Shown: positions 6,561-64,000 of the stretch, piece by piece
How the letters are laid out: each line of letters starts with the position of its first letter
How positions within the stretch are numbered: the first letter of the stretch is position 1
Source: Lobosporangium transversale
Taxonomy: Eukaryota
Assembly: GCF_002105155.1 (NCBI RefSeq)
Contig: NW_019028981.1
Location: 1,116,001 to 1,180,000 of the forward strand
Direction: 5' to 3'
Length of the DNA: 64,000 bases
The notes under the pieces: generated by a model
Databases searched by the model: none
What the model was told of the DNA's origin: nothing
Seen by the model: only the letters and a program-made list of their open reading frames with translations
Translations under genes and position numbers: made by a program

Positions 6561-7976
6561 AATATCCAAATGCAATGTCCTTTACTTCAAATGCAATCAA
6601 TATCCACACAAGCGCATGCATATTGACATACACCTTCTTTAGGAAGAAATAGAATAAAATATTTGCTGCACACAAACATTCCAATAAATCTGTACCTTTG
6701 TTTTTTTAGACAAAACGGCAAACAATCATTTAAAAGAGCAGACTCGAAAGTTCCTGAGCGGAAGATGAATCCATGTATCTTGGAATAAACATGTATATAT
6801 ACATATATATATATATTTATATAATATATTTGTATATATATAATATATATTATATATATATGTATAAAATTATATTTAGGGTGATCTGCAATTAAAAAAG
6901 CTGATGTTTTTTGAGTATGGGGTCTTTGAGAGACAACTCAAAAAAAGAGGAAGCTCAACATGTGGGAAGCATTTGTCTTAAGGAAGCAAATTGAGGGAAT
7001 TTGAGGAACGTTGGCCCACACGTGGCATGTGGCATGGTTCGAAGAGCCATCACCATCTTGTTTTCAGAATTTCAGATATTGGCTTGAAAGAGCAACCAAC
7101 ATCGCTGCTTGAACTTTGAATATTCACTTTGATTCTGTTACTGTCTATTGTAATCTTATTGCGTTGTTGTTGAATAATTACCTCTTTCTCTCTCTGTTTG
7201 GCTTGATCAGGTCGTCACCGTTGTACACAGCAAATCTATACACTGAAACAGAGAATCTACGTATATCGTATTTGAACAGATAACTCAATCCATCTCATCA
7301 TTGCGCACACAGTAATAGATAGAGTCCTCTCTTCAATATATGTATCTAAAGTTATCCTCTATCTATCCATCTATCTACATCTTTGTTCTCCATTATCTTT
7401 CCAGGTGAGGCATATCGCCCGTATATATGTATGAAATAACGTGTTTGCTCAATATCCTCTTGATTAATCTGGTATTTTCTAAAAAAAGAAAAGAACGTCT
7501 GAAGAGAGGTGAGCTATGGCGTTATTGAGTGTGAATAGACGAGAAGTCTACATGTATATTTACAAGTATGTCTGCATGTCAATGAGTAAATAACTAGGAA
7601 TATTATAGATATAACTTTTTTTAATACGATGTTCGAACATGTATCCTTCTGTGTATAAAAACTCTTTCCATGCGAGGCGTGCGTTTTATTTTATTATGAC
7701 AATAAGTAAATACAAATATTTTTATATATCAATTGACATATTGCGGATCTTGCAACAAGCGCTTCAATATTCTTTTTTCCCCTCAAATGCATTTCTCCTT
7801 TGCTGCTTCCTATCATTTAAAGGAAATATTGGCCTGTCTACATTGAGCAAAAGAGCAGCTTGAATCGGGCCAAATTAAAACGTGGCAAGAGACCAAAACT
7901 ATTGGTAAGGATATCATAACACACATATTGATGGACTGGCTTTGTAGCCGATTGTACCACAGAGAAAGAGGGTATG

Positions 7977-8009
<33 letters not shown>

Positions 8010-9730
8010 AACAAAATGCATGCATCGATCGACGTAAAAAAGAGAAAAGATGTAAAAGAAAAAATAATGAGGTGATTGACTGTTCAGGACAAGGGCTCAT
8101 TTTTTTTGACACCACCACAATCAAGCAATGAGTTGTAAGCTGCAATGCTTTGTCATAAACCTCGCCTTTGTCTGGCGCAATTATTAAGTCGGTTATGACG
8201 AATCTGCCCACAAAGCTGCGCACATGGGCATATTCAATACGCATTGCATGCCACGAGGGAGTTGTTTACATGAACACTGAGTAAAAAAGCTAAGAACAGG
8301 TGTTTAAACAAAGATGCTAGAGGATATAGAGGGGAAAAAAGTCAAGATAAGGCACATTTCTAGGCTACCCTTCCTAGGCCATCCAGAGAAGAGTAAGTTG
8401 GGGTATTTGAACCCAGATAGAACCGGATACCCAAGCCGTATCGGCGAAGACTGAGGAGGGACACAGTGATACAGGTTGTTTATTAGACTAGCAGCAGAGT
8501 GGAGAGCGTTAATAAAGAAGCTGGGAACACAAGAAAAGGGACCATCGTATACACTCCTGTACATCTCATGTAAGGGACAGACAGGGAAGAAATGGTGCAA
8601 GACATTATTGTTTTGGTGAACCATGATATAAAAATCATGCGGCATATGTGTATGTATCCATTTGTTTACAGGCGGCACATTAAAATGTTCAACTTAGCCA
8701 AGTTGACAAGAATTCATTGACCATGATTTATATACCGCTATTGATGTTTATGCGGTTCCATAAGAGCGTTACCCCTCTTCTCTCTAAAAAACGATCTTCA
8801 CTCTCTTCCCCCACCCTCTTCTTCTTTCACTCGATCGCTCCTTCTACTTCTCTTCTCAATCCTCTTCCTTTCAAATCAGCAACATCAACAACGACAGTCA
8901 TAGACTCATATAACTCCTACTCTGTTGCTTTTTAGCAATCTCATTGACTTGTCTTGAATTACTTAATCACACCTTTACACACCCATTGTCTTTCACTTAA
9001 TACTTTGCATCTACTCTCGTGCTCATTATTCTGACCCTTTTGCCCCTCGCGCTTTGATTATCGACATCTGCACCCTTCCTTGCGCTTTCACGCCCACTGC
9101 TGTTTCAATTGCAAAGAAAGATATCCCTTGTGGCCAAACTGTATACCAATCCGTAAGAAATACATCCTTGAAGGTTTCTTGCTACCAAAAAAAGATGCCA
9201 TAGATCAAATCGGTCGCACTACTCCTTCATATTGCCATACATACCTCTGCGCGAGAATCATACACTAGCATCTATACATAGCTCTTTTTTTGTGTTCATA
9301 TCGTCCAGGCAAGAGAGGCGATAAGAGGGTGTGTTTAGTGTTTTTACTTTGCTTGTATATAAACAGCTTAGTCGATGTCCTACTTGTTGTGCCTGATTTT
9401 TTTGTGTTTCCAAGTTGGTACAGCCGGATGGTGTGATTTATCGAACCAAACCATGCCAAGGATTGCAGCGTTAATTGTCTGTGTGTCAATTAAATTATGG
9501 AATTGCATGTCCTATGCCATGCCAACTGAGGAGCCCTGCTTTCCTTCTTACTCTATATTACATACATTTCATCCTCTCTGATGGTACCCTACAAGGTCCA
9601 CGTTGCGTGTTGGTGCCTCCACCATGGCCCTCATTCTAAACATGCAAAAGCGATGCATTCTCTCATTCCTCTCTTTAACGATGTGAATGCATTCCGCTCT
9701 CTTATGGAAATAACCATCCTGTTGTATTAC

Positions 9731-9763
<33 letters not shown>

Positions 9764-10296
9764 ATAAACGAGGAATGGACATCGCTTGTAGATCCTTCTC
9801 CTTACTTTTGACATTAATATATTTCTATTATACTTCTTAATATGCGACCTATGCCTTTCAAAAAAAAAAAAAAAAAAAAAGGGCAAGCACTTTCTCTTTC
9901 TAGTCATTTCATACTCTTCTATGCCCCATTCAGGGTCCAAACTTGCCCTCGTGTTACAATTGCTACGTTTTTACAAATTATTGTGGAATGAGGGTGTGCG
10001 CAGATGAAGAGCAATTTGCCTCTCTTTTTGATGAATCTCATTTTGACAGTTACACCAACCATCAACATCCTTAACCCACCTATCCTCATCCACTATCCAA
10101 GCAAGGAGTTTACATGGCACCAGAGTGGTGTCCATCCACTTGACACCCTCTCCCCTCTTCTTGTTCATCTATTTCATGATCGGGATCCTAACCCAGGTCT
10201 TTTTTTTTTTTTTCACCTCGATATTCCTTCTCACTCTAGTCTTTCTAACACTTGCTCATGATCCCACCTGTACAGCAGAGCTCAAGCATCCTTTCC

Positions 10297-13200
10297 ATGT
10301 CGCAATATCAACTACAGACCACCAACCTTAACTACAAGTCAACTACATCAATATCATCAGGGGCAAACATGGACCATCATAATAAATCCCACTCGGGGAT
10401 GAAAGGTTTTTCATTTTTCAAAGGCCATCATCAACACAATAATGAAACTTCCTCCCCACTTGACCACAACAGTAGCATTCCTAGCCAAAAAGGCTCGAAA
10501 CAGTCCAGCAAAAACAAACCAAGTAAACATGATCACACACCTCTTCCTTCTTCACACATTGACAGCGAAAACCATCACCTTAATCCCATGAGCAGTCGAT
10601 ATCACCATGCGCATACACATACACAACGGGCCCAAACAGACAAATCAGGTGTTGCCTCCTTTAAAGCCATTTTTCAATGCCAAAGCAATCGATTTGATGA
10701 GCGGATCATACTGGAGGAATGGCTGCAAAAGCGTTCATCTTCATTGCAACTTGTTTGGAAGCGACGATGGTGTGTTCTACGCGATGGGTGCTTTTATTAC
10801 TATCGGTCAAATGTAATGTTCATCTACTTTTCGTCCTTGCTTTCCATTAGTCTTTTGGTGTACCAACCGTGATAAAAAAACAAGAATCTTCAAACTTATA
10901 TACATAATTGACACAAACTTTAGACGGACACAAAGCCCCTAGGTGTGTTGCACTTAGCCGACTATTCAATCCTTTCATACGGGCACGAGGTATCTAGGAA
11001 GTCCAAATTCGTTTTCCGACTTTCATCTGTAGAACCCATGCCGAACGAAAATCAACATCATTTGTTCCATGCTGAAACAGCTCAGGCTCTGGATCTTTGG
11101 CTGGATGCGATCCAGGGACATATCAATCATGCCTTGGCACATCTAAACGGTGATTTCCTAAACCCATTGGGCATGGAATCAACCTGGGGGCTACCAGGGC
11201 CAGGGAAGAGGAGTGATAGCATGTGCTCATTATTGCAGCACCCACCAGAAGAGCAAGAGCAAGAGCGAAACATTATTGACGAAGTCCTAGAGCGTCTACA
11301 GCTCGAAGATCCAACCCTGTCGGATATAAACGACCCTTCTACATTAATTATGCCAGTCCAGGAGCATCCATCGAGCCCATCCTATCCTGCTAGCCAACAC
11401 CTATTGCAGAGGTCGTTTCAAGAAATGCAACTTAGCTTTGACGACAACCTCGATGGCTGGGGTCCATTTTCAACACCATCACTGACGAATCGACTGAATA
11501 TTGATACCAATTGTGGCGTCAACAATCTCAGTTCAAGCAGCACGTCCCTCAGTGTTGATCATCCGCTACTGGTATATGACGCCAAACAAAGTATAGGCTT
11601 ACCATTGTCCCCACAAAGAAGTCCAATTGCAACCCATAACGAGGATCGCATCCACAGCAGTGACGTCCCAACCAGCCATTCGGGAAGCTATACTCAAAGT
11701 AAAGCTTCCAGTTACACTGATTCCCCTCCTGCACATTCGAGTTTCTCGGAGATTGGCATCCTCACTGGAAACAGCGGTACTATTAGTAGTAGTAGCAAGA
11801 TGGTAACTATTATCACTTCTAAAAAAGGCTTAGCACCTTATCACCCAATTACTGATTCATACCATCAGGGAGGGGGGGAGGTGAGGGCCCAGATGGACCG
11901 CGGAAACCAAGGTCAAGGTGGACGCCATCCGACGTCGCCTTCATTCTCAGAAGAGCAATCCTCGTGCCAATACAGCAACAGCAGCATTGGCACTCCTCAA
12001 AGTCCACTAATCTGCCCTTATCGAATAAACGGGCAAGGGCAGTCGATACTATTAGAGATTGGTAAGTTCCCGCCGCTCCTTTTGCAGCCAACCAACAGCT
12101 AGCCGTACAGGTAGATTGCTAACACCTACGGGCCCTTTTCTGTTTTTGTTTTCAGGCGGCATTCCGCCATCAAGCAGCAACCCTGGCTCACCACTCGGAT
12201 CACCAAGGCTGTCATACATGAAATCTACCCCAAGTAGCCGTGACAATACTATCGCTACACCATCCCGAATACCGTTTTCCATGGCCATTGAGGCGGACAC
12301 TACTCCATCTCATAAACGTACCCAAAGTGAGGCATCTTCAGTATCTATTTCCACGATTGATTCGATCACAGGTGATATGGACGCAACTAACGACGCCAGG
12401 ATCAGCGAAACGGTTTCCGAGATTGGATATGCTAAACCAACCATACACCATGATCAGAAGAAGAGCAGCAACGGAAGTAACGACAATCATGCCCAAAGCA
12501 GTAACTGCTCTCTGACTAACCATATTGATGGTAGGGAAATAAGCACTAGTAGGAGCTATTGTACGGATAATGATTACGACGACCTATGTTACCTTCCATC
12601 AGTTGATGAGGAAGGCAATTCGCCCACGGCAGCATCAGTACTAGCATCAGCGAACCCAAAGAAGGCAAAGAAGCTGTGGTCAGTATACGGTGGAAGTGGA
12701 AGTGAATCAAGGAAAGCAGAGAAAGCCAGTAATGGCAGTAAGAGGGCCGTAAGCCAGGCTCTGGATGCAGACAACCCGATGCTCAAAAATCTAGTCCTCA
12801 TTTCACCACCTTCCAAAAAATCTTCTCCTAGCAGGAAAAGCGATAATGGCAAGAAACACAATAAGGTATTCTCCAAGTCCATGACCTGTCTGCCCAATGA
12901 ACCTACATCGATGGGTCATTATTCCGTGGATACAAGGCCGACTGGCGCGGGTCCTCACTCTGCTGCGCCGTCGTCCTTAGCATCATCTCCAAGGGCCCTG
13001 GCCTCAAGGGCACGCTCACCCTCAGTCTCCATTCTAGATGAGGCTTATCAATTAGCAAGCATTGATTATTCACAGAAGCGTGTCATTTTAATGCATCGAC
13101 AAAATGGGAGTGCTAGCGCTGACCCCTCTGCTGCATTTGAATCATCATTCATTCAACAGTCGGGCCAAAAGCTGCCAATACCTTACCAGGGACAAAGGCA

Positions 13201-14356
13201 GCAGCAGCATGGTCTGCAATTCAGGCCGTCGAGGGCATCGACCGCACCTATACATACAATCAAGAACGATTGGGGGACACATGTTCAAGACCAAAGATTC
13301 TATTCACAACCACAGCGATGTATTGCCCCTGCACTTATTCGACAACAACATCATTCTCAGCCTGCCCAAGTCACTGGAGATGCGAATGGAGCTATATTAC
13401 GACATATCATAGCTCCTGATGAACTTGCGTTAGCCATTGATCTGGAAATGGAGGAGAGTAGGCGGAAGCAGGAAATAGAGCGATTAGGAAAGCTTCAGGA
13501 GCAGGAGCAACAGAAATGCAACGACCAAGAATCCAAGCTGATTGAGTCAGAGCTATTACCGTCTGGATCCCAAGATACAACCGCAAGTATTATAGCCTCC
13601 ACTACTATCGCAGCCGATGATACTATTGTGAGTGATGTCATATCGCTGAATTCGCTCACCATCCTGGCTGCAACGAATTCAGAGCTACCGCCAACCTCCA
13701 CGGCCGTAGCGGAGCCAATTAGTGGCAACTGTGACCTTATCCTGGCAGCTGTACGCCCACTGGGCCAATTGAACGACGTTGGGAAGTCGGATGTACCATC
13801 TCCATTATCGCGATCCCTTCCACCCCCGAAACGCAGCCTTCGTCGCCAGCCATCCATAATAACAGGTCCCGAAGGCTCCGCGCAACCATCGCTGCACAGA
13901 GCAACTATGGTATCACAAGCTTCACAAGCCTCACGAGTATCATATATTTCAATGCCAAAATTAGATGCGTCTTTATTAGAAGACGAGTCTTTCCATATTT
14001 TTGAAGATGGACCAACTGAAACCACGACCATAACGAGGAGAGATGATCACATGGCAATACTGGAATTCGCAAAAGGTGATAATGCCGGCGATGGGCCTGA
14101 AGACTTAATGGCAATTGAAGCCTCGGTTGCTACGGCTATGACGGATAGTGCTACCACTACTTTGATGGATTCAATTACAACTCTAGCCATGAATAGAAAT
14201 GAACTAAGTCGAGATGGATCTTCTGCAGCATTATCTCCTGTATCTCCTGTGTCCCCTGCATCCCTGGTATCAATAGATTCCCCTCCCATATTACCAAGGC
14301 GATCTCCCTTCCGTGGCATTGTAGCAACGAACACAAGTCCTGTCAGCTCATTGTAG
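10297..14356 (+). CDS. PH-domain protein with long disordered C-terminus; introns 10813-10923 and 12062-12155; start uncertain (10258, 10297 or 10369)
   Basis: Spliced reading gives ILEEWLQKRSSSLQLVWKRRWCVLRDGCFYYYRSN|TDTKPLGVLHLADY...FHAETAQALDLWLDAIQ, a typical PH signature. GT-AG introns join three ORFs in frame. Confidence 0.85.
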
Positions 14357-17118
14357 TACAATCAGTTTTCATGCTCTGTTTCCTAGATGTATAATACACA
14401 ATAACAAATAACTGTTCTCTTCCTTTACAGACAACCGAAAATAAACAGAGTTCCACAGTTGCTTGCAATTGATATCCACATATCCATTACATAGGAGCGT
14501 AGCAGGTGAGGTGCCTTCTGGCTGTGTTTATTAGAGCAAATCCACCGGGGTTAGATCTTAGATAAAAATAATAATTTAGGACAGCTGTAGCAGCTCACGA
14601 TAGATTTTTTGAAAGCAACACCGCAAGAGATCGGGTCATTCTTAAAAAATTAAACGGCATTTTGCTGTCTGGCCCCATTTCAATCGTATCACATCAAAGA
14701 TCAATATTACATGGGCACTACCTTTTAACTCTGGGGTGTGGTCTCATTCTCCTTATCCTTGAGGTAGATATTCTCCTCAATGTTTCTAGTAGATCTTAAG
14801 ACCAACTTTATAGTTTTTTCTTGTCTATGGTTGATACTGTATTTACATATTTTGCCTACTTTGAACCCATTGGTCTGCCAACTTTCATGTAATTAACGAG
14901 TCGCTGAGCAGAAGGGGACAGAGCGGGAAATTGAAAGCCAGAAAATGTTTTTCATCCGGTGATAAAAAATAATGAGGTTCAACACTGCAAAAGTGGCGCC
15001 GTTGTGCAACAAATGAATTTTCCCACTGATCCATGTGCAAAAGATCATGCAAAGCTTCAAACCCAAAATGTTCCAGACGCCCCTGGTCTATTTTATTCCT
15101 CCTTCCCAGTTTTGTTAGAATATGGCTATGCCTGTTGTCGGTTGAGAATCGGAAGCATAGACTTAAAAAAAAAAAAAAAGAGAGACGTTTCAATGTGGCG
15201 CTCCATACAACAATCTAAATACAGGGGGGGTGATAAAGCTTTCCGTTATTGTATCCTTTCAGTCAGTATCAAGTCTCTAGGTGCCCAAAACGCGTGCTTT
15301 TCTCATATAGACGCGTGTGCAATCATACTAGAAAGCACCCACCAAATCTTTGAAAAGAAAATAATGTGAGTGATGGAGGAAAGTAGATGAGATTATAAAA
15401 AAAAATAAAAAAAAAAAATAGCATGTCGGCGATTTGATATTGACCGATAACGGGAAGCTGACACATGTTCTGCAGTGAGCGTCATGCACGCGTGTGCTTG
15501 TGTGTCCAAACTATGAAGGTAAAGGAAGGCTCTTCGTTTAAGGAAGGGAAAAGGAGGAATGAGGGGGAAGGAGAAAAATAAGGGAGCGAAGGGGAAATAT
15601 GACGGTGATCGGATCGCATCCTTGGCAGCCTGACTTCGAAAAACAATAAAATGAAGTGTGGCCATCCAGGAGTTGAGTGCAGCGCGTATAAGCCAAAAGG
15701 GTGCACGTATGGACACAAGTTATTTTTCTATTAGTGAAGTCTACGACCTTTTTCGAGGGGGTGGGATCAATATATAAGATAGAGCCTAGAACTAAGAATG
15801 ACTTGGTGTACCTCTTCAGCGTTGAAAGCTTTGTCATCCTGACAAGAAAGAGACAGTAAAAAAAAACTGACTTAACAATGACAGAAGCGAGTGGAAGGCT
15901 CTTTTCATCTTTTCTTACATCCCTTCCTCTAAGAAACATTCCCAGACAAGAACTGGAAAGTGGATTTGGATATGTGGGTATTAAGAAGGGGATTTAGAAG
16001 CCAAAGGTGCTGCTTCAAACAAACAAAAAAAAAAGGAGGAATGAGAAGATACAAACCATTTTTGCCCCTCGATACAAGAGTTAAGAAACTATTGGGATGC
16101 ATGGTGTGTTTGAAATGAGGGCTGTGATGAAGGAGTGAAATGTTGAGGATTTGTGCACCAATAACATGTAAAAGAGAGCAGGGGGTTGCCTATACTAGCG
16201 AGAGTGGTTCTTCCTTTCTGTACGCTCATATTCATGTAGTCATTGAATAGCAGCATCGGCGCATCCTCTAAAAGTAAGGCTTTACGTTGGAATAACGCAA
16301 AAGAAGGAGGATGCCGAAAAAGAAGTAATCCTCGCACAGACCCTGTACACAAACAATGTATGGATGAATGGATAAGTGTATAAACAATCCTCCTTACTCA
16401 TGTTCTTGGCCCCATGAACAATCTCATTTTGATCTGCCTTGATCATTCGTTTTTTGTTGCATGAGGATCTCATTGTCGTTATTGAGCATTGTTACTTTAT
16501 TTTATTTAACCTTTGTGTCCTTGTCCAGACGTGAATTTAATATTTTGCCGCGTTTAGTGCAAATTTTCTCCATCTACACGTTGCTCACGTGCATAAATTG
16601 ATCTCAATCCCATCATTCTTTACTGTAATAATGTGTCTTTGAGCACATCAATTCGTTAATCCGTTATTGTATTACTATTGTTTGCTTCGCCTAAACCCAT
16701 CCAGGAAAAGGAAACAACGTGTTCTGTTCTGCGCTTCGACCTAAGATATGGTTATTTTTTAATTTACTTCACTTGTAAATATTACATCTGTTCTCAATCA
16801 GCACCATTAGTCTAGCCCCTCTTCTCCCTCCTTCCTTCAAATGAAGCGGGCTCAGTACAGTTGCTTGCTACTTTTGCTACTTCTACTTTACTACATTTTG
16901 TTTTGCTTACTTTGTTCTCACGAAGACAAAGAAAACCCGCTTACTTCATTTCTCTGCTTCTCCTTTCTTTGGTTCATTCTCCCACTTTTTCCCCTAACTG
17001 TTGCCTTCATTCACTCTTTCGGTTACTTCCTCTTCCCTCTGCCCTTCCTTCCTACGCTCAACCGCGCCCAATTTACCGAGCTGCATCTCCGCAGCGACGC
17101 TATGCCATCACAAACATC

Positions 17119-50883: not shown

Positions 50884-52644
50884 TCAAACAGACTAATGAG
50901 TAAGAATGGAGCGTCTATCGCTCCCACGCTCAACTTTCTAAACGACAAAAAGGGGGGACATTCGGGTAAAAATGTCGCGAGTCATAACAAGAAGTCATGA
51001 TCACGGGCAATGTGATTTTATGGGAACGTTGAACAGCTTTTTTTTGCGCCCACGAGAAGAATATCCAATCAAAGTAAAGTAATGCTTCCGCTACTCATTA
51101 TAGCGTGGGAGACTAATTGAAAAGGGAGATGATTTGTATGAGCACCACGTTAATTTCAATTTTATTGTATCCAAAACATGCCGATATAATTGGGGTTCAG
51201 CCCCTTGATCAACGGTAACAAGGCCACGCTTTGGAATAAAAAGTTGATAGATTGATAAACGGTAGATCTTCCTCTCTTTCATTCAGTATGCATCCTACAA
51301 GATGTGTTCAAGTGTCCAGTTAAACGTAGAGTTATCACCAGAAATTACTTCCTTGAAAAATTAAACTATTCTATGTTATTTTATTTTACTTTATTTTATT
51401 TCCTATCCTTTTTTTACGTGATATAAACATACACAACGTGTTCTACTCATTCTTGGTGCAACTGTAAGCAACTGTAAGCACCTGCTTACGCCTAGTCTCG
51501 CCTTTGGTTGTGAAATATAGCAGGATCGTAATAAGTAATGAGAACGAAAGAAAAATATATTCATCCCCAAACTCCTTCAATTGATTGCCAATATTACCTA
51601 TGGATTTGCTCAGCGACCATTACCCTCAATAAATATCTCCTTTGTGGATCGAGGTTCACCTGCAACTATTGGTATGACCCCTTTGCATTGTTGCAAAGGA
51701 CCATTCTCCTTTAGTTTCTTTTCAAACCCTCAAAGAGCTACCCCCATGATTCTGCCGCTGTGCACTCAGGTCTAGTCTCCTTCTTATAGCCTCCATTTTG
51801 CTGGAATGAAGCCTGTTACTTAGTAAGGACAAATAACAAGGCTAAAAATGTATGAGGGGTATAGCTAGCGCCTCTATATCCATCTACTAAAGCTCCAAGT
51901 AACCCCCCTCTTCTGCTCCGTGGAGAGTGGAAGTTTCAGCTTCCCTATTTGAGGAAAATAGAGTAATAGAGTATTGTTTATTTGGTTGTTCTTATGTTTC
52001 AGCAACCTTGATATAGCTTCAGCACTCTTTGATTACTCAAGCGCACAGGCACGTCGGTTTGGGCCCTAGGATGTTTTCTGGAAAAGGATAGGAGGATAAA
52101 GAAGAGGTAAAGCTAACTACAACGCTGTCCGACAGAGTTAAACCATGACCTACTATATACCTAAATATCCTGTTTCTCTCTAGGTCATGCCCTGTTTTTA
52201 CGTTGTCGGCCATGTTAATCTCATCGAATTTCCAGTGATGAAAATAAAGATAGATTACTTTCTCTGTTGAAAACAGGTATAAACCATGTATTACTTGGCT
52301 ATATGGCTTTGAATCCCATACTCATTCACTAGTCGATTACTATGACTACTATTCACACTGGCTTTAGCAACAAAAACATCAGTGAACGATTCCAGGAACT
52401 ATTCATGTCCAGAAAGCGATACATATTCACAATTTTTTTTATCAGATTATTAAATTGCTGCCACCGATACCTTCCATCCCTCCACGTACGAGGAAGGCAA
52501 GCCTCTGCTGGTCAAGACTGGACTTCACCATGTTTGAAAGCTTAATTCAGTCTTCTTCACGCTCCTTTCGCGAAGCGCCGGGGAATTTGCCTTAAAAATC
52601 ACGAGTCAATGTTCCCTTTTCGTCTTTGTCACTACAACCAGTTG

Positions 52645-52668
52645 TGAGAGAGAGAGAGAGAGTAGAGA
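52645..52668 (+). repeat. (GA)n microsatellite
   Basis: gagagagagagagagag run. Confidence 0.8.
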
Positions 52669-54014
52669 GTAATCGAAAAGCAATAACTCTCTTTGTCCAG
52701 CGCTACGTTGCAGTTGATCCAATATCCTTTCCCCCGCGCAAAGATGATATGATATATGTCCAGTTTCCTTTCACTGTAATAGCGACGTATTAAAAGATCG
52801 GCACATCAATACAGTACGTCAATAGCATCTATGCATTCAGCCTGTAGTTATGATCGCAGGTTGACTTTGGACAATGCATATGAATTAATTATAGCAACGG
52901 CCATGGTGCCAAAGCCTTATCTTCCACGCATGTGCATTCTTTGTAAATTTCCACATTTTTTAGTGGTGGAGTTGCGTTGCACCATCACTGGAAATAAAAG
53001 ATGTCAACTTAATTATGTATTTGATCTCGTCGTTGGACGATTCTAGCTAATAGACGCGTTTATCACAAATGCAAGAGCATGCTAGATTTTTGTCTCAATG
53101 CAAGGATGAAGTTATTTGCACGGGCCTGTACACACCTTATTTACACTGCTCCCCACGTGCAAATAAAAAAAACTATTTGTACGATGTTTTTATGGACATA
53201 TCGATATTCTTGGTGCTATAGATAAAGTCACTCATTTCAAACCCAATTGGCCTCGCTCCATCCGGAGCCGCTAGCAGGGGCCGAAGCGCAACTTATTCAA
53301 GCGGATTTTACGCTACCTGACGAATGCTAATAGTAGTTCTGTGATGAGTACAGCAGGGCATAGTATGTGACCAATCTAGACAACTATTTCTGAATTAGTG
53401 TTGCAAAAACTTGATAAAACCAGTGGAACGCAGCATAGACAAACTCAAAGTCCATTGAGTCTTCAGAAAATATGTATTTCTCAATTTGAAACCAGTCGTG
53501 GTAAATATGCGCAAGTTACATAGCAAGAAAAAAAGATTTCCTGTAGGGAAGCTCGGCTGGGTCGCGAAAAATAACAATTATCGGATATTCTGAACTCATT
53601 TTCTCAAGAGGCAGTGTATAAAGTATTGAAAATAGAGTCCATATCGTTAGTAATAGCCTAGGCGAGTGATCCCTGCTTTAAGCTCTGCTTCTCAAGGCTC
53701 TAGCACAATAATCCATACAGCCATCAAATGACATGGTTTTGCTATTTCTATGGTTATAGTAATGTATACAGGTACTGCTCCATGGATCCTGCATAGATTC
53801 TTTTAAGAGTTACTATAAATAGAAGATGACAAGTTCCATTTGTCGTTCATTCTACAGGAGCCATTCATGCTTAAAGTCAAGTTTGTCACAATATTTGGCA
53901 CAGTCTTGATTAACACTGAACGGACTGTTATATCTCATCTCCTCTTCTGCACATTGGATATAGCAACATGTAATAAGCATTTGGTGCTCGAAGGAAGAAC
54001 AACAGTTTACAATG

Positions 54015-54343
54015 TGCGATCCTAATACTTCCTGTCTATTGACGTTTTTATTGAGAGAAAGCCCACCAATTAAAGGCGGATTTTGTTTGAAAGACTGAAT
54101 AATAACCCCCCGCAAATAACTTCATTGTTTGGCAGCCCAGTTGCCACCCAAGTGTGAAGTTAAGTGGCTGTTCCAAAAAATAGGCTGCCAAATAATGGCA
54201 AAATTACCACATGTATTAAGTATGGGCTGCCAATAATATTTGGCACCTGGGTTGCAAAAACAAAAAAATCGTAGCAAAGGGTGGTTTCGATCCACCGACC
54301 TCTGGGTTATGAGCCCAGCGCTCTTCCTCTGGGCGACTTTGCT
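54015..54343 (+). repeat. 329-bp unit (tRNA-iMet plus 257-bp 3' trailer), copy 2
   Basis: Identical by eye to 33263-33591. Confidence 0.9.
54272..54343 (-). tRNA. Initiator tRNA-Met (CAT), copy 2
   Basis: Same 72-nt sequence as 33520-33591, with T7 terminator. Confidence 0.95.
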
Positions 54344-54351
54344 GTCTGTTA

Positions 54352-54726
54352 TGTCCTAAATCGAGGCAACTTAAGCTCACGTCCTATAACAAGTGACGTC
54401 ATGGTAGGTAGGACCAGAGGTATACCTATAGTGGTCACCCCGTCCTGCCTGGACGTGAGCTCAGCCACCCGATCCTCCCCGCTATAATAAATAGTGGACT
54501 CTCCGTCCCTGAAGTGTTCCTTACCTTTATCTTGGTACAACACTTCAGGTATGCAACCTCATTGATCTCAGCACTAGTTACTTGTATAGTATTATATGTA
54601 TCATAAACTAATAAAGACCTTTATCTTGGTACAACACTTCAGTGTGTTCTATGTATTTGCGTCTCGTTGCGGTTTTTAAGGGCATCTCAGTATAACCCCC
54701 CGGTTCTTAAGACAGTGATTTTTTCA
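54352..54726 (+). mobile_element. Solo LTR-like element (375 bp), copy 2, TSD GTTA
   Basis: Begins TGTCCTAA and ends TTAAGACAGTGATTTTTTCA; TATA-like TATAATAAATA at ~54483 and AATAAA at ~54610; GTTA at 54348-54351 and 54727-54730; 8 nt from the tRNA 5' end. Confidence 0.85.
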
Positions 54727-54863
54727 GTTATTTATGTTTGATTACCTTAAATACAACACCTTTATCCATAATAGCACTTATATAAGTGCTTCCATAAATG
54801 CAAGACGAGTGGACGAATTTAAAAAAAAAAAAAAATCAAGACGGACGAGCTCTTGGCTTAGCC

Positions 54864-54941
54864 GCCTAATGGCTGAGTAGTATACTCCTCAGGGCACCCC
54901 CTGTCTAGGCCAAGGGCCGGGTTTGAGTCCTGGTTAAGGCA
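54864..54941 (+). ncRNA. Degenerate tRNA-like sequence (possibly Asp-derived), likely a SINE head
   Basis: A-box-like TGGCTGAGTAG, T-arm CCGGG-TTTGAGT-CCTGG (B-box GGTTtGAGTCC), acceptor-like GCCTAA/TTAAGGC-A. Loop CTGTCTA has a broken stem. Confidence 0.5.
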
Positions 54942-55542
54942 CATAAAGTGAAGCAAACATGTGCCAGGTCAGGGATTTGCTTGAGTTTTTACACTTTCTC
55001 TCCGAGACAGCCTAGTGTTCTCCGCTAAGGCTAAGATCGTGGGTGCACTACCCTAAGTCGCCTGGCTGGCCACACGTCTTAGCTATATATTCCACCCCCC
55101 GGCCGAACCAGCGGTACATCTGGCAGCACATCCCCATCTATCCACTTGACTAGGACAGCGATGATCACAAAGTTTGAAGGAGTCCAAAGTAGAAATTTCA
55201 GACCAATCCCGCAAGATTTGGGTCCACATGCCAGTGGATTTGATCGAATAGAAAAAAATTAAAAGTCGTCCTTAGCTAGAGTCGGCACGCCAGCCTCCGC
55301 GGCTTTTCACGGGCGCAACAGGCCACATCGGAAGGATGGACTTCGAGTACCGATCACGGTGTACTTGGCAGAGAAAAACATGGATACGAATTGGCTCTTC
55401 ACAGCCATACCGTGCGAACTTTGAGAGTTTCGCTTGTTTCATAGTTGAGGGCGATATCATTACTTTAGAGCGAGATTATGAAATAAAATTCCTCACCTCT
55501 GTGGGTTCTTGTTAACACGAAAAAAAAAAAAAAAAAAAAAAA
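54865..55542 (+). mobile_element. Candidate tRNA-derived SINE with poly(A) tail and 20-bp TSD
   Basis: tRNA-like head, A23 tail at 55520-55542, flanking direct repeats ACGAGCTCTTGGCTTAGCCG (54845-54864) and ACGAGTCCTTGGCTTAGCCG (55542-55561), 18/20 identical. Confidence 0.55.
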
Positions 55543-58500
55543 CGAGTCCTTGGCTTAGCCGTAAAGCTTCCAGATTAACAACTGAAGGCTATTGATTGAA
55601 TTCCTGGCGGGGAGCAAGTTCACTACACTAAAATTGAGGCAATATCTCGAGGAAGTCGAGCGATAGGGCCTGCTCCATGGTCTAGAGGTGATGACCCTCT
55701 CGGAATGCCGCACGGAACGACCCTGAAAGAACGGCCGAACGCTAGACGAAGCAGACATTGATCCTCACCATCTACGCTAGTTTTATAGTTCACACACACA
55801 CGATGTTGTCCCTGCTCAGAAATGCGCGATGGAGAAAGACCCTTAGTGGCTAAAAATGTCAGAGGCATCTAGAATAAAAAAAATCTATATATGCATGATA
55901 TCCTGGATAAGGGCTTTCCAAGGAAACATGGCTAGACTTATGGTGACTGTAAAGCGACCCTCTCCGGAGGACGGGTCATCAAGTATATTCATTCTGAACT
56001 AGATAATTTTTCAGTTTTATAGTACTGTTCATTTAGAGACAAATTGTTTAAAAAAAACCATATGCATGCATGACATCTTCTTTTAATGCAGATTACATGA
56101 CCCTATGATATTGTTTTTTGCTGTTGTGGATTTTAAAGAAATGGCTAAACACCATGGCCTCAATAGAGCTAACGTCTAAATAAATCCTACATGACTTTGT
56201 GGGTTCTCGTTATCAAAAAATAAAAAAATAAAAAAAATAACATTATGGTCTCAAACCAGTCGTCGTCGGCTTCAGAGGCCTAGATTATGCCTTTGTTTAA
56301 TCAGTAATACGATACGGAAAGTAAGCTCAAAAGATAGTGCATATCATCAGTTGTTTGTAGAACACTTTATCCCTTCGTCCGTAAGAAGGACAAATTTCCC
56401 ATTACAAATGGGCTTGAAATCCAGCAATCCATGGGCATTGCCTCGGAATTTTATTTCGACGTCGAAATAAATGACCGAAAACTAAACTGTCATGGAGCTA
56501 TCCAGGCTTCTTTATTTGTGCAAATAAAAAAACTCATGAAGACTTTCGTATGACCCTAGCATCCGCTTGAGGGCCCATTGTATCGTTTATTTATTGATTG
56601 GTATAATATAGCAGTGATAATATTCGCCGCCGTAGTATTGACTTGAAAGGAGGGCAATCTGAGTTGATTCATCCTACCGCACCATGGAGCTTGACTAACT
56701 TGATCTTTTCCTGTACAACTGCGAGACTTGATTTGTCACATCATTTGCTCCCTCGTCTTCTTGCGTTCCCTTGATATACCTGGGTTGGTAAACACTGCTA
56801 ATAGAGTTTGGGTCTGTTGAAACTAGAGGGAACCACACCAACGTATCATATCCAAGGTGATACATATATCTATGTTGGAGTGAATGGTGAAATGCCTGTG
56901 TGATTCAGATGTAATGAACATTTACGGCGAGAGGATGTGAGCGATTATGAGAGCAAGAAATAAAAAGTTTGTATCCCTTTTTAAGTCCTTGGCAACAGAG
57001 CATGGGTAGCAGCTGTGATCACAAGTTGATTTTGGTGAGTCCGCATAACGATGGTCAAGGCTCTATCTTCCATGCACGGCATGTGCATTATTATTGTTTC
57101 CAGACCTAGGCACCAACCATGGGAGGTATTTTTTTTTCTGGGAGTTCTTTGTGTTAAACAGCCAGACAGAAAGCTTAAAAGACATACAAGCACATCAACG
57201 GTGGAAAAAAATGTATATGAGCAAACAGTTGCTGTGCTTCTTTGTTGTCTGCACATACCTTCTTGCATCACGAGGGGGTTTTTTTTTGCAAATCTTGTTT
57301 CCTTTTTTGTTCATCAATCACTCTCAGTTGTGTGTACGAACATGCACCAGGCTATTGAATAAACAGCTGAGGCGTCTCTTTGGTTCCTATACATGTAGAA
57401 ACACATTTTGCATCGCGGCGTTTTTTTTTTTTTTTTTGTTTTCTAGGCAATTCCAAAATACAAGCGTTTTCCAATGGAGCCTCTAGAAGAAATATTTAAA
57501 CTTTATTTTGGCGGCCACTCCACAATCATAACAATCCCTAGGAAAGAAACTCAAACGCGTCGGTATAATCTCGCTTCTATTATTGTAATTTCGTATATCT
57601 TGTTGATATCTGTAATTCTATATGCATATATTTTGGCGATTGGTATCAACTATCAAATTCACACATACATACACACCAAACGACCGCCAAAAACCACCAC
57701 TCTCGCTTCTGCTCTCCCTTCATCCACAAGACGCTGTACAATATCACCATTAACAAGGCACCATCCAGTGAGAGAGGGTAGTTAGATAGCTTTTACTCCA
57801 AGCAATAAGCGCATGCAACTACATCACTCCTATCTCCGCCATTGATGCCGGAACCTGAGAGCCAACGATTATCTCTGCTTTAACGCAAAAGTACTGGAGC
57901 TGTTGGAGCAAAGAGCGACATCTGAACCCATTCTCTGATAAAAAAGAAGAAAGAAGAAAAAAAAGATTTTTTTTCTTTTGTTGTTACCTTTGACAAGGAT
58001 GTAATCACCTGTTTCAAAACTAGTTCATACACACCGAGTCAAATCTGTCAACGTATTTACTACCCCTGTTCAAAATTATAAAATTTTTTTTATTCATTAA
58101 ATTCCTCACAAAGCAAGGGCCAATGCAAAAAGAAACTGAAAAAAAATTGTATAGCAAAGGATCGACATCAACACTGTATGCTTTATACGGAAATGCTCAC
58201 TTTGGTATCTCAATGCTATCGTTTCCAATCTGCCGTTCATATGAGAGCTTGTATTTATTTGTCGATCTCTACTATTGACTTGGACAAAACCCCAATCCAA
58301 ACAAAAGGAACTGAATAAAGATTGATGTGGCCTGTGAAGCAAAGGATCGATACCAAAACTATATGAGATAATGTTAATATTCATCATCAATTTAGGATAT
58401 AAAAAGAGATCATTGTCTTCCTCCTCTCCCGCTCGTTCACTCCAAAGTCTCATCCCTTTTACCACTGCCACTTGTTCCTGTATCTTTTCACCAATCTTCT

Positions 58501-58657
58501 CTGCCTGAACGTTTTATTCTTTATCTATTCACTTTGGATCTTTAAACCATAAAAAACTCATCCATTTATACCTTTGTCGCTCTTTTTATTCTTTTTCATT
58601 TCTTTTCATCACCACCATTTTCCCCTTTTTTCTTTCTCTTTCGCTTAGATATCGACC

Positions 58658-59677
58658 ATGGGACTGAGGTCCTTCTTCAAACTGGTTGCGGATCGTAGGG
58701 TTTTACCTTCGGAAACTGACGTGGGCACTTTCTTGGCGGCAAATCCTGACCATTCTGTTCATGTAGATCTCCTCGGTATGTTCTATTACGACATCCACCG
58801 TAGAGTCGTCCATACAAAGATGAAAAACAAATCCGCCATTGATGTAGGAAGGTCCCTGGCTCTCGAGATAAAGGGTCTTTTCAAAACAGAAAATCTGACT
58901 ATCACATTGATTGGTGACCTTGTACTGAGAAAGAAAAAGCAAGAACAGAACGACAAGCCATAAGATAAAAAAATATGGACGCTTTGGAGAACGATATGAA
59001 CACCTTCGAGAGAAACTCTCGGACCGAAGTTTGAACTCGTCCTCAAGTCATGAGGCGCATCCAGAAGGGCCTTCGAGAAGTCCACACCCTGAGCGTCCAG
59101 GACAAGAATCAGCTGGCAACAGGCCTTGCCTCTGTCTTCGATGTCTGTCTGTGTGCATATGAAGCGAACCCATGCATAGGGTGCCATAATGAGGAGAATG
59201 ATAGGACGGTGATGTCCCAAGACTTTGATTTTTTTTGCATACGAACGAGTCTGCATCCTAGTGCGACCTCTTCCACACCGTAGACGAAAGTTTGAGGTTT
59301 ACGGCGTGAACAGCGTTATTCAAGCACTAAACCTACCATCACACGAACATCTGGTGTTATTCTGTGCCATCGCGGGCAATGATTACTCAAGGAACCCCGA
59401 GACGTTGGGCTCGATTAATAATCTTCGATTAGTTCGAAAGGTTGCGTGGAACAAGAGCTACAATAAAATGCTTCAAGATTATCTTAGGGAAGCTAGTAAG
59501 ATGTTGGGAAGGAACGCAGCCTCTGAAGAAGGCCATTTCAGAGTAGCTCTCCGCGTTTTTACTTCCGGCTATCAAACGTCGGCCCAAGCGTTACCATCGA
59601 ACAATGAGTTCGATAACTTCAAGCAGCGTCTACTCAATGGAAGGGGTCTTCGCCATAGAATGGCTCAGCAAAGGTGA
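58658..59677 (+). pseudogene. FEN1/XPG-like PIN nuclease region (frameshifted) at the 5' end of a Fanzor-like gene
   Basis: MGLRSFFKLV...HVDLLG (XPG-N-like), EKEKARTERQAIR (helical-arch-like, shifted frame), CAYEANPCIG (EAD-like, 59161), VMSQDFDFFAY (DxD, 59221-59229), FCAIAGNDYSRNPETLG (H3TH GNDY, 59375). Confidence 0.7.
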
Positions 59678-59756
59678 ACGCAGCGCCGCAGAACGTAAGA
59701 AAGCTCAAGCTATAGTTTTGGCCTTGAAACCAGACGTCCCCTATACTAATCGTTAG

Positions 59757-61973
59757 TCCCTTTCTTGGATAGTGTAGAGACGCACCATCATTCTATATAG
59801 CGGAAGGGTCACATAGAAACCAGTTCCGGCCCATCTTTTCTGACAAGGCGAGCATATTGAATGGGCGCACAGTTGATATCAGTAACTGCCGTCAGCACGA
59901 TAGGCCGGGCCTTAAGCATCCACCGCGTCGGAAAAAGACAAAAAAGAAGCAACAGAAAAAACAAAAGCGGAAGCACAAAGGCAAGAAGCCCCACAGGGTT
60001 AAAAAAGAAGGTGAACCAATTAGGAACTTGAAGGATGCTACGAAGGTTGATTACAGCTACAGTAGTAAGCACCTTATCAAGGCCTTAACAACTGAGTCCC
60101 TCAAGGCTTCCATGGGCAAGGAAAGGCAGACTGGACGCAGAAGAAAGGGATAATATTGCAAGCCAGATCCGAGGGGCAGTTGTTATCCTCAACCGACTAC
60201 GCCGCTATGCATACTGGGCGATTGCCTTGGACATTGAGAGGATCATGCGGCTACCAGGGGCAGCAAGGTCGAGGAAAAAGGCACTGGACGAGGTCTTGGA
60301 TAGCACTGACTATTCCTTCCGTCCCGCCACCCTTCTTTTAAGTGATCAAGGTGGCCCCAATTCAGCTTACGCGAGGGCAAAAAAACAAGGAAGGGCCGTA
60401 GAAACGCCCCACTATCTCCTCGCTTATGAACATTTCAAGGCCACCACTGAACTTTCTCCAATAAAGGAAATAGACATCACATTGGGGGACGTACAAGGCT
60501 TTGATCCCAAAAAGACCTCGTTTCCAAGAGCGACAGAGCTACTAATGGGCCAAGTACAGCCATCATTAAGGCAGCACTACAGGAACGCAATGGTATAACC
60601 TTGTGTAGGGTATTTTCATGCATATTCTGCAATCAAATGCTCTCTATTCAGACTCTTCTTTTTTTCTAATTTCGATGTCGAGAAAACTAACGAAGACATG
60701 GGCGATATTGAGTTTTTTTTGCGGGAGAACAAAGAAGTGGAAAATGCTTAGGCTTCCCTACGTCTCCCTGGTCACTCAAATATGTGTATCTGTCTGAGCA
60801 CGCCCTAGTTGGCATCCTCTGGGCGAACGAAGATACCAAGCAGCTGCTGGAGCGTATTCTGCCTCTCAACAATCCTTCCAAGACTGCAATGTTTGAATGT
60901 GTACAGGGAACAAAAGGGTTTTTGATACAGGCTCTCTTTTGTGACATTGGAGGTGATGGATATCGAGACAAAGTATCTCTACAGTCACAAGACAAAGAAA
61001 TAACTCAAAGGAGCGATTTCTACTAACGGTCTTGTTCTGAATCTACTTGCCTATGACACAACCCAGACGAAGAGACAGCGGCAGTCTGACGTAGATGAAG
61101 AAGACCCCAGTCAGGAATTGGGGCTTTCCCAAGGATTCCTTGACACGACGTGTTCAAAGGCAGCTGCTGAAGGCCTGACAGATGAAGGCTAAGTAAACAT
61201 AAACTGGAGGAGGAGCTCCAAACTGCTTGAAAACGTTGAGCTCACATTCAACGAACCAGGGCGATGCCCATCCGCAAGCACCACAACTATCGTCGGATGC
61301 GATCCTGGTATTGTTAATGCCCTTACGTTTTCCTCGCTGGACCCCCACAACTCTAATTTGCGGCAAACGGTAAAGGTGAGAAGCAGGTTCTTGTACCTTC
61401 CCGTCCTCCGCTTCAATCACCTACTGAACAAAAGAGGTGTGAAAAAGGAATGATTGAGGTTGCGAGCGCCATCCCTGTATTTGGAAGGGATACGTACAAT
61501 GGGTGCTTCCAAAGGATGAGCGAGGAGTCCCAGACACAGACAGAATCAAAGAAGTTGGATGTGCTTCAAGAGTTCTACGAGTCCAGATGGTACCCTATAA
61601 AGAGACACCTTGTCACACAGGTATGACTTTTTTTAAAAAAATAAGAAAATCTGGAAAGCCATAGAACCCTTGCTGATAAACGACTGTCATTTGAAACGCT
61701 TAGGTCAAAGCACGAGGACACTTCGCTGTAGGGGTGCACGAATTTAACACCAATGCCCGCTGTCCCCGATCCCTCTGTGATAGCTTTTTGGAAGCGCTGT
61801 ACCCTCGCTCTAAATATTGCCGTGCATGTGAGGTATTCTTCAGCCGTGACGCAGTAGGAGCGGAAAACATCGCAAGAATCGGTCTTGCTCAAATTGAGAG
61901 GCAAGAGAGCCCTGCAAAGTACAAACCCCCGGAAGAGTCGCCTGCTCCGGCTGCAAAGCGCGCACGACGCTAG
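59757..61973 (+). pseudogene. Fanzor/TnpB-like RuvC-zinc-finger nuclease region with stops, frameshifts and a deletion; intron 61621-61703
   Basis: ISTNGLVLNLLAY (TDG-like strand, ~61016-61054), RuvC-I TTIVGCDPG (Asp 61301), RuvC-II FAVGVHEFNT (Glu 61740), CPRSLC...CRAC zinc finger, RuvC-III SRDAVGAENI (Asp 61848), C-terminal PAAKRARR. Confidence 0.8.
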
Positions 61974-62242
61974 ACACAAGCATTTGGGTGCCGACAACCC
62001 ACAAAGAATTTGTAAGTTCTGCATATTTCCGTCTCTGTATCCTTCTACCTAATCTTTTGCCTCTGAATTCCTGGACTAACTTTAAAAACCTTACAGATCA
62101 ACAGATAGAACTGATTGGTCTTCGTTTTAATAGTGCTGTTCGATTAGGGATAATTTGTAGTTATAACACTGCATCTTTCTAATAAGAAACAAATTTTATT
62201 GATTTCCTCTGCTATTTTTACTTTCTATATCAGCAAGATGTT

Positions 62243-63880
62243 TCATGATGTAGTTTGTAGAGAAGGCATGGTTTCAAGTCTAGCGAGATCCTTGATATGG
62301 GTTACAGTCTTGCCTCTTTCCTCTAACGTTGATGATGTTGATGATGAAGCTACAGCGGTGACAACAGTAGCAGATTCAGCTCCATTTCCTGATAATGCTG
62401 TTGTTGGTGACAATAATGAGGTCGATGATAATGATAACCCCTCAGCCACATTAGCAGCAGCTTCATGAATTCTTCGGATCTTCGTTGTATGTCCAATACC
62501 GAGCTGTGGCAACCCTTTGTTCAGACCTTCAAGGAGAAGACATGCTTTACAAAGTTCATTGGAAGAAATATATCCACACCGTGTACAATTTGTCATAGTC
62601 GGCAGCTTTGTTGATTCATTAGCCTGTACCGAAGCTGAAAGCGCTTCGCCTGAATGGATAATGTCTAAGTGCAGAATAATAGTAATAATAATAAAAAGCT
62701 TGTTAGAATCTCGGAAAAAATAATAAAATTGGAAATAATAATAATAAAAAAAAAACGACGCTTACCAACGATAGCAGTACGACGGATGGCCTCCAATTCC
62801 TTCAAAAACACACGGGCATAGCCACGATAGGCATTGGGTGAGTAAATGCACTCTGTTGAGAAATAATCCAGTTTTTTAAAGTAGGCATACATGACAATCT
62901 CCTTTTCATATGTGTATTTGAATGGCTTTGAGCGTAGGATTTTAGAAGTTTCAATGCCAGAAGCATCATCAGATGTGTCATTAGTAATGATAGATGTGCA
63001 CCGTTGGAGACGCGGCAGATCACCTCGAAGAACTAACGGGTAAAATTGAATATAATTGATGCATCTACGGTTAATCTCTGAAAGTCTCATATGGAAAGTA
63101 TATATATATATATATATATAGAGGCCGAGACCATAGTGCACTTACTGTTCATCAAGACAGTCTCGGCAATATCGTCTGCATTGTGGCCAGTGACGATATG
63201 GTCCACGTTGAGCATAATGGCGCCGCGATCCAATGCTTGACGACGGAATACTCCGCAGAATGTGCAGTTGTTCTTACGCCCAATCTCTTTGACAATATCA
63301 TCCATGCTCCATCCATAGAGATCTTTATAGCTGATTATCAAAAGGGGGATCTGATACTGGTCTCTATTCCTTTTGACAGTTTCCAGTGAATCGTCTCTGT
63401 ATCCAGTAATTCCTTCGTCTATTGATAGTAGTACTAGATCCAAGCCATAGTTGTATCGATCATTCAAAAGCTTCATGACATATGCCAGGACCGTGGAGTC
63501 TATCGTATGTGAGATAATGAAATGAGTATTTTTTTTGCCTTTTTAATTTGTAGCAAGCAAAAAAATTTTCTAAATAAAAATAGGCATGAGTTATTACCTT
63601 TGCCACCACTTGCACCGATAGCTACTCTGTCACCTTTTTTGAAGAGTTTGTTGTCGACAATGGTATTATGGATTTCTGTCTCGAAAACATGGTAGAAACA
63701 TTCTTTGCAGAGTTGCTGACCTGTCTTTGGTCGTTTGAGGATAGCTCGGACAGACTGACAGAGATTGCAAGGATTCCTGAGAGGTTTAGTCCCCTTTGAT
63801 GATTTCACTCCTACTTCAGGCTGTGTCTGTGTATGTTGGTGTGCATGTACGGTTGTATCGGCAGTGTTGGTGAGATGCAT
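62243..63880 (-). CDS. NCS6: Cytoplasmic tRNA 2-thiolation protein 1 (CTU1), multi-exon
   Basis: [40 protein letters not shown] (PP-loop), [82 protein letters not shown]. Confidence 0.95.
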
Positions 63881-64000
63881 TCTGGTCAGTATAGAATGGG
63901 TGGTGAGTCTTTTTTTTTTGTGTTCAAGATTGCAGATCAGTTTGCCTCGTTACTTTTTTTATCAAGAAAATTAATGGTCACATGCATTCCCATCAATTTG

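Follow-up and report, generated by a model that had tools for sequence, protein, structure and literature searches.

The closest described relatives of the element reported here are the Fanzor1 nucleases. In the parts of Saito et al. (2023; PMC10432273) covered here, Fanzors are given as 400–700 amino acids (aa) long and their biological role is stated as unknown. The omega-RNA of SpuFz1 follows the stop codon and has a scaffold of 75 nucleotides (nt); the SpuFz1 (Spu-1) elements contain no transposase, and three other Fanzors show no clear association with one. The same source describes cutting followed by copying through homologous recombination for TnpB, and suggests it for Fanzors. At the protein level, the canonical RuvC-II position of Fanzor1 is occupied by Gly or Pro, and an alternative Glu lies about 45 residues further on (Jiang et al. 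2023; PMC10530073, in part), and the Fanzor motif has been given as D-X(125-275)-[TS][TS]-XX-C4 zinc finger-X(5-50)-RD (Bao and Jurka; PMC3627910, in part). Here we describe a locus at 58658–61973 on the plus strand of a 64,000-nt stretch of the Lobosporangium transversale contig NW_019028981.1 (the window, in which all coordinates are counted). It is a dead copy of a gene from a multi-copy repeat, in which a FEN1/Exo1/XPG-type 5′ nuclease (the head) precedes a Fanzor1-like nuclease (the body), and splice signals indicate that the two very probably formed one chain, flexibly linked.

Read in six frames, the plus strand of the locus carries every motif listed by a first-pass annotation of the window, in the order that it gave. 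MGLRSFFK stands at the start at 58658 and is followed by HVDLLG with its D at 58766, EAN at 59161–59169, SQDFD at 59215–59229, and GNDY at 59375–59386. A Lys-rich stretch at about 59920–60010 separates these from the Fanzor motifs, which are TNG at 61022, IVGCDPG with D at 61301, GVHEFNT with E at 61740, zinc-finger Cys codons at 61761, 61776, 61818, and 61827, RDAVGAENI with D at 61848, and the stop codon at 61971–61973. One motif needs amending, since EAN is private to the window copy and the family form is EAD: all contigs covering 59167 in the public runs X1, X2, and X5 have G in place of A there, and EAD also occurs in the proteins P0002–P0005. The order of motifs is more than chance because the 998-aa gene model P0007, from Mortierella sp. 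GBA43, is colinear over the locus when used as a tblastn query (E 7e-130 within the window); the locus is also colinear with the complete relative P0157 (1184 aa), at 33% identity over 992 aligned positions. There is no second copy of the gene in the rest of the window.

The coding sequence is spread over all three plus-strand frames, and a frameshift-aware alignment of the predicted exons with two relatives places five premature stops (ending at 58917, 58968, 59034, and 59677 in exon 1, and at 61192 in exon 3) and about seven frameshifts. Near 61595, a deletion has removed the bridge helix together with the RuvC-II strand, a loss of about 42 residues relative to P0007 and about 60 relative to P0157. 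Contigs of other copies hold extra sequence before 61595, and one loose end there, judged by eye, is the missing motif. Because of these stops, frameshifts, and the bridge-helix deletion, the window copy reads as a pseudogene unable to make a working protein, which agrees with the first-pass annotation both on the deletion and on the death of the copy. Pfam contributed little: among 10 broken pieces of the gene, only the last had a match, to Cas12f1-like_TNB (PF07282) at E 3.6e-4 and below the cut-off, none of the 10 matched an XPG family, and P0007 also yielded little.

By profile and by predicted structure, the body is a Fanzor1-like nuclease. A profile of 18 long members matches SpuFz1 over positions 832–1002 (E 2.6e-7). 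When the whole predicted model of P0157 (mean predicted local distance difference test score, pLDDT, 77.6; predicted template modelling score, pTM, 0.60; disordered linker) was submitted to Foldseek, ranks 1–7 were structures of SpuFz1, GtFz1, and PpFz1 (E 5e-11 to 3e-8), behind which came FEN1 and Exo1; with this whole-chain query, the template modelling scores by target were 0.40–0.56 and the best root-mean-square deviation (rmsd) was 8.5. The split RuvC of Fanzor type that had been read from the motifs, for which this fold comparison had been proposed as a check, is thus borne out, with the rearranged catalytic site in place: the RuvC-I D is kept in 27/27 rows, Gly at the canonical RuvC-II site in 20/21, the alternative Glu, 37 residues past that Gly, in 12/15, and the RuvC-III D in 12/13. 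P0157 fits the Fanzor motif with D903, TS before C1088, C1093/C1107/C1110, and RD at 1116–1117. The window copy keeps the D, the four Cys, and the RD and has NT where TS is expected, and its RuvC-II Gly strand falls in the deletion. The family therefore resembles SpuFz1, GtFz1, and PpFz1 in body fold, in the succession of D, zinc finger, and RD, and in the RuvC-II Gly with a shifted Glu. Unlike the studied Fanzor1 proteins, it has an N-terminal 5′ nuclease domain of about 300 aa and a basic linker, and its members measure 1000–1360 aa against the 400–700 aa given for Fanzors in the parts of Saito et al. (PMC10432273) covered.

The head has a FEN1/Exo1-family fold in the predicted model and conserved catalytic residues, so that its earlier assignment to the FEN1/XPG type holds. 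The paralog P0002 matches Rad2 at E 1.2e-5, the family profile matches FEN1 at E 1.5e-16, and positions 1–290 of the profile of 18 long members match FEN1, Rad2, Exo1, and XPG, at best with E 2.7e-12. In fold comparison, Exo1 and FEN1 bound to DNA score highest: residues 2–309 of the P0157 model align with Exo1 at Z 21.4 (rmsd 3.5, 281 aligned) and with FEN1 at Z 20.8 (rmsd 3.2, 273 aligned), and XRN2 reaches Z 15.8. As to subfamily, the sequence profile favours FEN1, and structure ties Exo1 and FEN1. Seven acidic residues are kept in 80/82, 107/109, 112/125, 124/125, 125/128, 124/128, and 123/125 of the rows with a residue, and the gateway Lys and gateway Arg in 109/111 each, so that each head residue is retained in about 90–99% of rows; these equivalences to FEN1 residues we assigned by motif. 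In the window copy, one of the seven acidic positions is occupied by Asn. The fold, the seven acidic residues, the gateway Lys and Arg, and the H3TH motif are all shared with FEN1, Exo1, XPG/Rad2, and GEN1; unlike these enzymes, to which it is 14–18% identical, the head lies in a dispersed repeat and is fused to a RuvC nuclease. A viral FEN1-like gene is one candidate source of the head: viral XPG/FEN1 models match it at E 1e-9. On viral contigs, three scans found no relative of the family.

A HMMER search of cluster representatives gave 387 proteins at E ≤0.001, 150 of them listed. The family occurs in ten genera, nine among the 25 organism-named of 30 proteins examined and, in addition, Lobosporangium, a genus of the Mortierellaceae. 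Gene models of about 1000–1360 aa from this group are single chains colinear with the locus; P0007 was the one long relative returned for P0002. For L. transversale itself, one gene model matches the window at 99% identity, and five paralogous models lie on other contigs. The proposal of one ancestral gene is upheld at about 1000–1180 aa by the colinear P0007 and P0157, and the joint presence of PIN and RuvC parts in one gene of the relatives by the single-chain models and the predicted in-frame intron 1. Our alignment comprises 133 of 164 proteins; it omits short fragments and near-duplicates, together with the gene model of the window itself and one repeat protein that is unrelated. All catalytic residues of head and RuvC stand in one chain in 5 of the 28 long rows listed, namely the complete-looking members P0157, P0050, P0076, P0088, and P0118. 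In Mortierella sp. GBAus27b, P0157, P0158, and P0008 share 98% identity, which points to recent spread. Head and body distances in 17 members correlate with rho 0.59, a value reached by 0 of 2000 permutations, and the head tree and the body tree (the latter from a quick search with no bootstrap) give the same 7-row group and the same P0076/P0088 pair. The fusion is thus old and has been inherited as a unit; its co-divergence is no proof that the halves cooperate, since shared ancestry alone gives the same pattern. The P0076/P0088 pair is divergent, with both catalytic sets and only one of the four zinc-finger cysteines. A member of 2367 aa, P0167, falls in the P0152 cluster. One metagenome scan returned five partial loci, none with the whole gene, and the ESM Atlas holds one cluster of unnamed function with PF07282 on 67% of its 58 members and no XPG family shown.

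The predicted gene has four exons, all on the plus strand. Exon 1 (58658–59694) encodes the FEN1/Exo1/XPG-type, PIN-like domain with its H3TH motif and has frameshifts near 58900 and 59233. Predicted intron 1 (59695–59777), drawn from splice signals (GTAAG, CTAAT, and TAG) and frame, is of phase 2; once it is spliced out, the nuclease exon reads in frame into the Fanzor side, and its retention brings an in-frame TAA and a head-only product of about 345 aa. By sequence reading, an intron of matching phase and position is present in locus L002, where splicing likewise restores the frame. Exon 2 (59778–60592), with a frameshift near 60120, contains a conserved FYxAxGSxxNQFRP motif, the Lys/Arg-rich linker, and the start of the Fanzor body. 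The linker is likely disordered, as suggested by a pLDDT under 50 for residues 413–473 of the P0157 model, and is a possible nuclear localisation signal. Predicted intron 2 (60593–60665) has its donor at 60593, a gap relative to P0007, and an approximate right edge; its acceptor is decayed in the window copy, and loci L003 and L004 have an intron after the same motif. Exon 3 (60666–61620) carries the Fanzor body with the TNG strand and the RuvC-I Asp, together with frameshifts near 60740, 61003, and 61420 and the deletion near 61595. Predicted intron 3 (61621–61703), from splice signals, shares its position with L003 and L004. Exon 4 (61704–61973) supplies the alternative RuvC-II Glu, the C4 zinc finger, the RuvC-III Arg-Asp, and the stop, and is 49% identical to residues 1069–1143 of P0157. 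Some contigs of run X5, which is guessed to be RNA, lie on the repeat, and most of its records are less than 95% alike. A joint in X5, 61985>62063, was rejected as splicing because it is also present in a DNA run and has extra letters between its ends.

The gene belongs to a multi-copy repeat of about 5.9 kb on the plus strand (56242–62107). Summed contig depth, which shows the multi-copy state and is not convertible to copy number, is 3252–14409 over 57000–62207 in run X1 against 124 in most bins beyond, and 137–584 on the repeat in run X2 against 10.6 beyond its right end. The right end is placed at 62107 on two grounds: 62078 is where single-copy contigs set in, and past 62107 three contigs diverge. 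This end is sharp, common to the copies, and lies 134 nt beyond the stop codon. On the left side, depth climbs from the bin 56057–56273. Comparison of copies, which the first-pass annotation had proposed for defining the element ends, therefore fixed the right one and only bracketed the left, at about 56160–56450. Joints in other copies (56610>57782, 57525>59096, and 58046>60575) tie the upstream part to the gene. The last of these, seen in run X1, marks an internally deleted derivative without the head exon, at a depth of 791 against 124 for single-copy sequence, with a likeness to non-autonomous derivatives. Candidates for terminal repeats at 58256, 56195, 56109, and 56244 were rejected as not significant or inside the repeat: the best gapped inverted match, 56244–56358 with 61994–62093, is equalled by 10/300 shuffles and 21/526 background windows with the left end unfixed, and the second candidate, at 56109–56138, by 40/1230. 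Spu-1 has clear 30-nt inverted repeats (PMC10432273, in part), in contrast to the window repeat, where none is clear; the two are alike in being multi-copy elements with no transposase detected inside them and in having a conserved tail after the stop. The differences that run X8 shows on 57000–63500 consist almost entirely of C>T (85 places) and G>A (69 places), a bisulfite-like pattern.

The tail between the stop and the right end (61974–62107, 134 nt, plus strand, common to the copies) is the candidate location of an omega-RNA scaffold, a placement similar to that in SpuFz1. It contains a 5-base-pair hairpin at 61985–62001. Rfam gave no match in the tail, and over 53000–62400 only a tRNA. 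An intron-like segment at 62012–62096, with a strong donor, branch point, and acceptor, ends 11 nt before the right end; if spliced, any omega-RNA would be reshaped and the tail would be 49 nt.

What might such a protein do? We regard it as about evenly poised whether the intact protein of this repeat was a guided cutter that trims the ends it makes so that repair copies the element. On this hypothesis, the intact gene would yield one spliced protein with a FEN1/Exo1-type 5′ nuclease and a Fanzor1 nuclease. By analogy with the studied Fanzor1 proteins, the right end would probably give rise to an omega-RNA that takes its guide from the flanking DNA and directs the cut to element-free alleles. 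The tethered 5′ nuclease would then resect the break to 3′ single-stranded tails and so bias repair towards homologous recombination from an element-bearing copy, so that the element would be kept and spread in the manner of homing; to reach new sites, it would probably depend on a transposase acting in trans or on ectopic recombination. Homing endonucleases follow the same cut-and-copy-back logic. Guided cutters have also been tethered to end-processing nucleases by design, in engineered Cas-exonuclease or Fanzor-exonuclease fusions. Unlike those fusions, the family described here is natural and old, and its activity is predicted. TnpB of IS200/IS605 is alike in its proposed logic, in which the element-free allele is cut and copied back by homologous recombination (PMC10432273, in part); unlike TnpB and homing endonucleases, the family is eukaryotic and intron-bearing, has no TnpA that we could find, and carries an end-processing nuclease of its own. 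The wider claim that this Fanzor1 lineage with its intact-looking nuclease is, family-wide, a natural RNA-guided, self-resecting gene drive without a transposase of its own is tentative, and we lean against it. With a second nuclease retained on Fanzor1 in ten genera, this lineage allows the role of Fanzors to be tested directly; if the head resects, it would be a natural counterpart of engineered fusions that steer repair, and would support a homing-like model in eukaryotes.

Several points weigh against this hypothesis of a self-copying, end-trimming cutter. RNA guidance, resection, and homing are what we infer from sequences and models, and the evidence fits other tasks of a 5′ nuclease as well as it fits resection. 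For the repeat, no significant terminal inverted repeat was established, and no target duplication tied to both ends was found. The tail folds no better than shuffled sequence (z +1.0, 173/200 shuffles as good), and its 49-nt spliced form would be shorter than the 75-nt scaffold of SpuFz1. No splice of intron 1 is found among the 15 of 55 joints listed from contigs of public runs, and an in-frame stop lies at its donor both in the window and in L002. Among the long relatives, most are gene models made automatically, and 96 of the 120 rows covering half of the head have no Fanzor half in the alignment, these being mostly short or partial. Finally, head conservation is inflated because the homologues were gathered with a head-domain query.

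Four other explanations deserve weighing against the end-trimming cutter. The head might act on RNA or on RNA:DNA hybrids, trimming the 5′ end of the omega-RNA or clearing the R-loop after the cut. FEN1-family nucleases do act on RNA flaps and hybrids, and the short, poorly structured tail may point to an unusual RNA maturation. However, DNA-bound Exo1 and FEN1, at Z 20–21, outrank XRN2 as structural matches, and the Fanzors and TnpBs studied mature their RNA without such a domain (PMC10530073, in part), so that we consider a role on RNA unlikely.

The first-pass annotation had also suggested that the head could support mobility without a transposase, noting that the Fanzors known to it travel beside a separate one. 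In the corresponding explanation, the head would replace a transposase by processing flaps or strand-invasion intermediates, and the fusion would place the element at new sites unaided. The annotation's observation that no transposase is visible nearby agrees with our search for one: no Pfam family was found at E 0.1 in the six read-through frames of 56200–58657, the 2.4 kb upstream of the start, or in those of 51500–56200, 12 frames in all, to which it must be added that a decayed, heavily frameshifted remnant could escape detection by Pfam. The dispersal of the repeat over several contigs, its internally deleted derivatives, and its lack of clear terminal repeats would also fit. However, FEN1 and Exo1 cut, and such enzymes are not known to join strands. 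The premise also lacks support, since Fanzors without a local transposase are common: SpuFz1 elements have none, and three other Fanzors have no clear association with one (PMC10432273, in part). The missing transposase is therefore ordinary and is no evidence that the head takes its place, and we judge a transposase substitute improbable.

It could also be asked whether head and Fanzor are two products, from separate genes or through intron retention, fused mainly by gene-prediction software. Besides the in-frame stop at the donor of intron 1, there are many head-only records of about 340–350 aa, for which retention of that intron may be the source. Against this, no evident separate start for the Fanzor side follows the intron, and at two loci the frame is restored by splicing. 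Among the 120 head rows, 24 run on through the Fanzor half. The other 96 comprise 71 rows of less than 400 aa and 25 longer ones. Of the 25, P0009 proved to be a misplaced piece of a Fanzor; the remaining 24 are all at least 400 aa long, and 16 of them reach into the start of the Fanzor side. Moreover, each of the metagenomic contigs that encode P0076 and P0088 (4503 and 4013 bases) carries both halves, probably as an unspliced open frame. Two separate products are, on balance, very unlikely. Equally so is a host-kept system that cuts and degrades invading or repeated DNA rather than copying itself, which the conservation of both catalytic sets across ten genera and the large deletions expected from cutting with 5′ degradation would suit, and to which the many dispersed, decaying, internally deleted copies, a better fit to a selfish element, and the lack of a guide array near the window copy are opposed.

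With respect to the literature, we compared the family with those parts of five Fanzor papers that were available to us (PMC10432273, PMC10711439, PMC10530073, PMC10691335 [Altae-Tran et al. 2023], and PMC3627910). The sequences are already catalogued as Fanzor1. In the supplementary table of Saito et al. (PMC10432273), P0118 and P0056 are labelled FZ1 (two of eight accessions matched), and placement of the family on the Fz1 branch rests on these FZ1 labels, by look-up. That table also includes a 265-aa FZ1 entry from L. transversale (ORZ22893.1), which by eye is paralogous to the C-terminal part of the locus, and a 1128-aa FZ1 protein annotated “Rad2 nuclease”; among the 18 of 20 occurrences of a motif listed from it, 17 are Mortierellaceae FZ1 rows with head-like N-termini by eye and one is FZ2. 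A term search of the main text available gave no mention of XPG, FEN1, or a PIN domain. The hit table of Yoon et al. (2023; PMC10711439) includes a 1186-aa head-bearing protein, with no mention of XPG, PIN, or FEN1 in the parts covered, and no family member was found in the supplement of Jiang et al. (2023; PMC10530073) as far as it was available. We found no paper describing a natural fusion of a Fanzor with a flap nuclease, in a coverage outside which subscription journals, figures, and bioRxiv supplements could mention one. The novelty left open by the first-pass annotation is thus reduced to the head, which is not discussed in the passages searched, the relatives themselves being FZ1 entries already. 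Separately, the Salpingoeca rosetta protein EGD78173.1 (1534 aa, FZ2; file 3, row 1947 of the Saito et al. table) has head-like N-terminal motifs by eye and may, on its sequence, be an independent fusion of the head to Fanzor2.

The surroundings of the repeat contain further elements. A high-copy, A-tailed repeat resembling a short interspersed element (SINE) lies at about 54900–55543, with a depth of up to 11442 in run X5. A short A-tailed remnant at 56163–56241, bordering the Fanzor repeat on its left side, resembles the 3′ end of this SINE-like repeat; neither has a match in Rfam or Pfam. A tRNA-Met on the minus strand, with a high-copy repeat of about 300 nt beside it, occupies 54271–54642. 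The latter contains a perfect 26-nt direct repeat at 54523 and 54617 and is possibly a solo long terminal repeat targeted to tRNA genes. On the other side, a spliced PP-loop gene (PF01171) on the minus strand at 62243–63949 ends about 135 nt from the right end of the Fanzor repeat; its two introns are spliced in run X5, and it is likely the tRNA thiolation gene CTU1.

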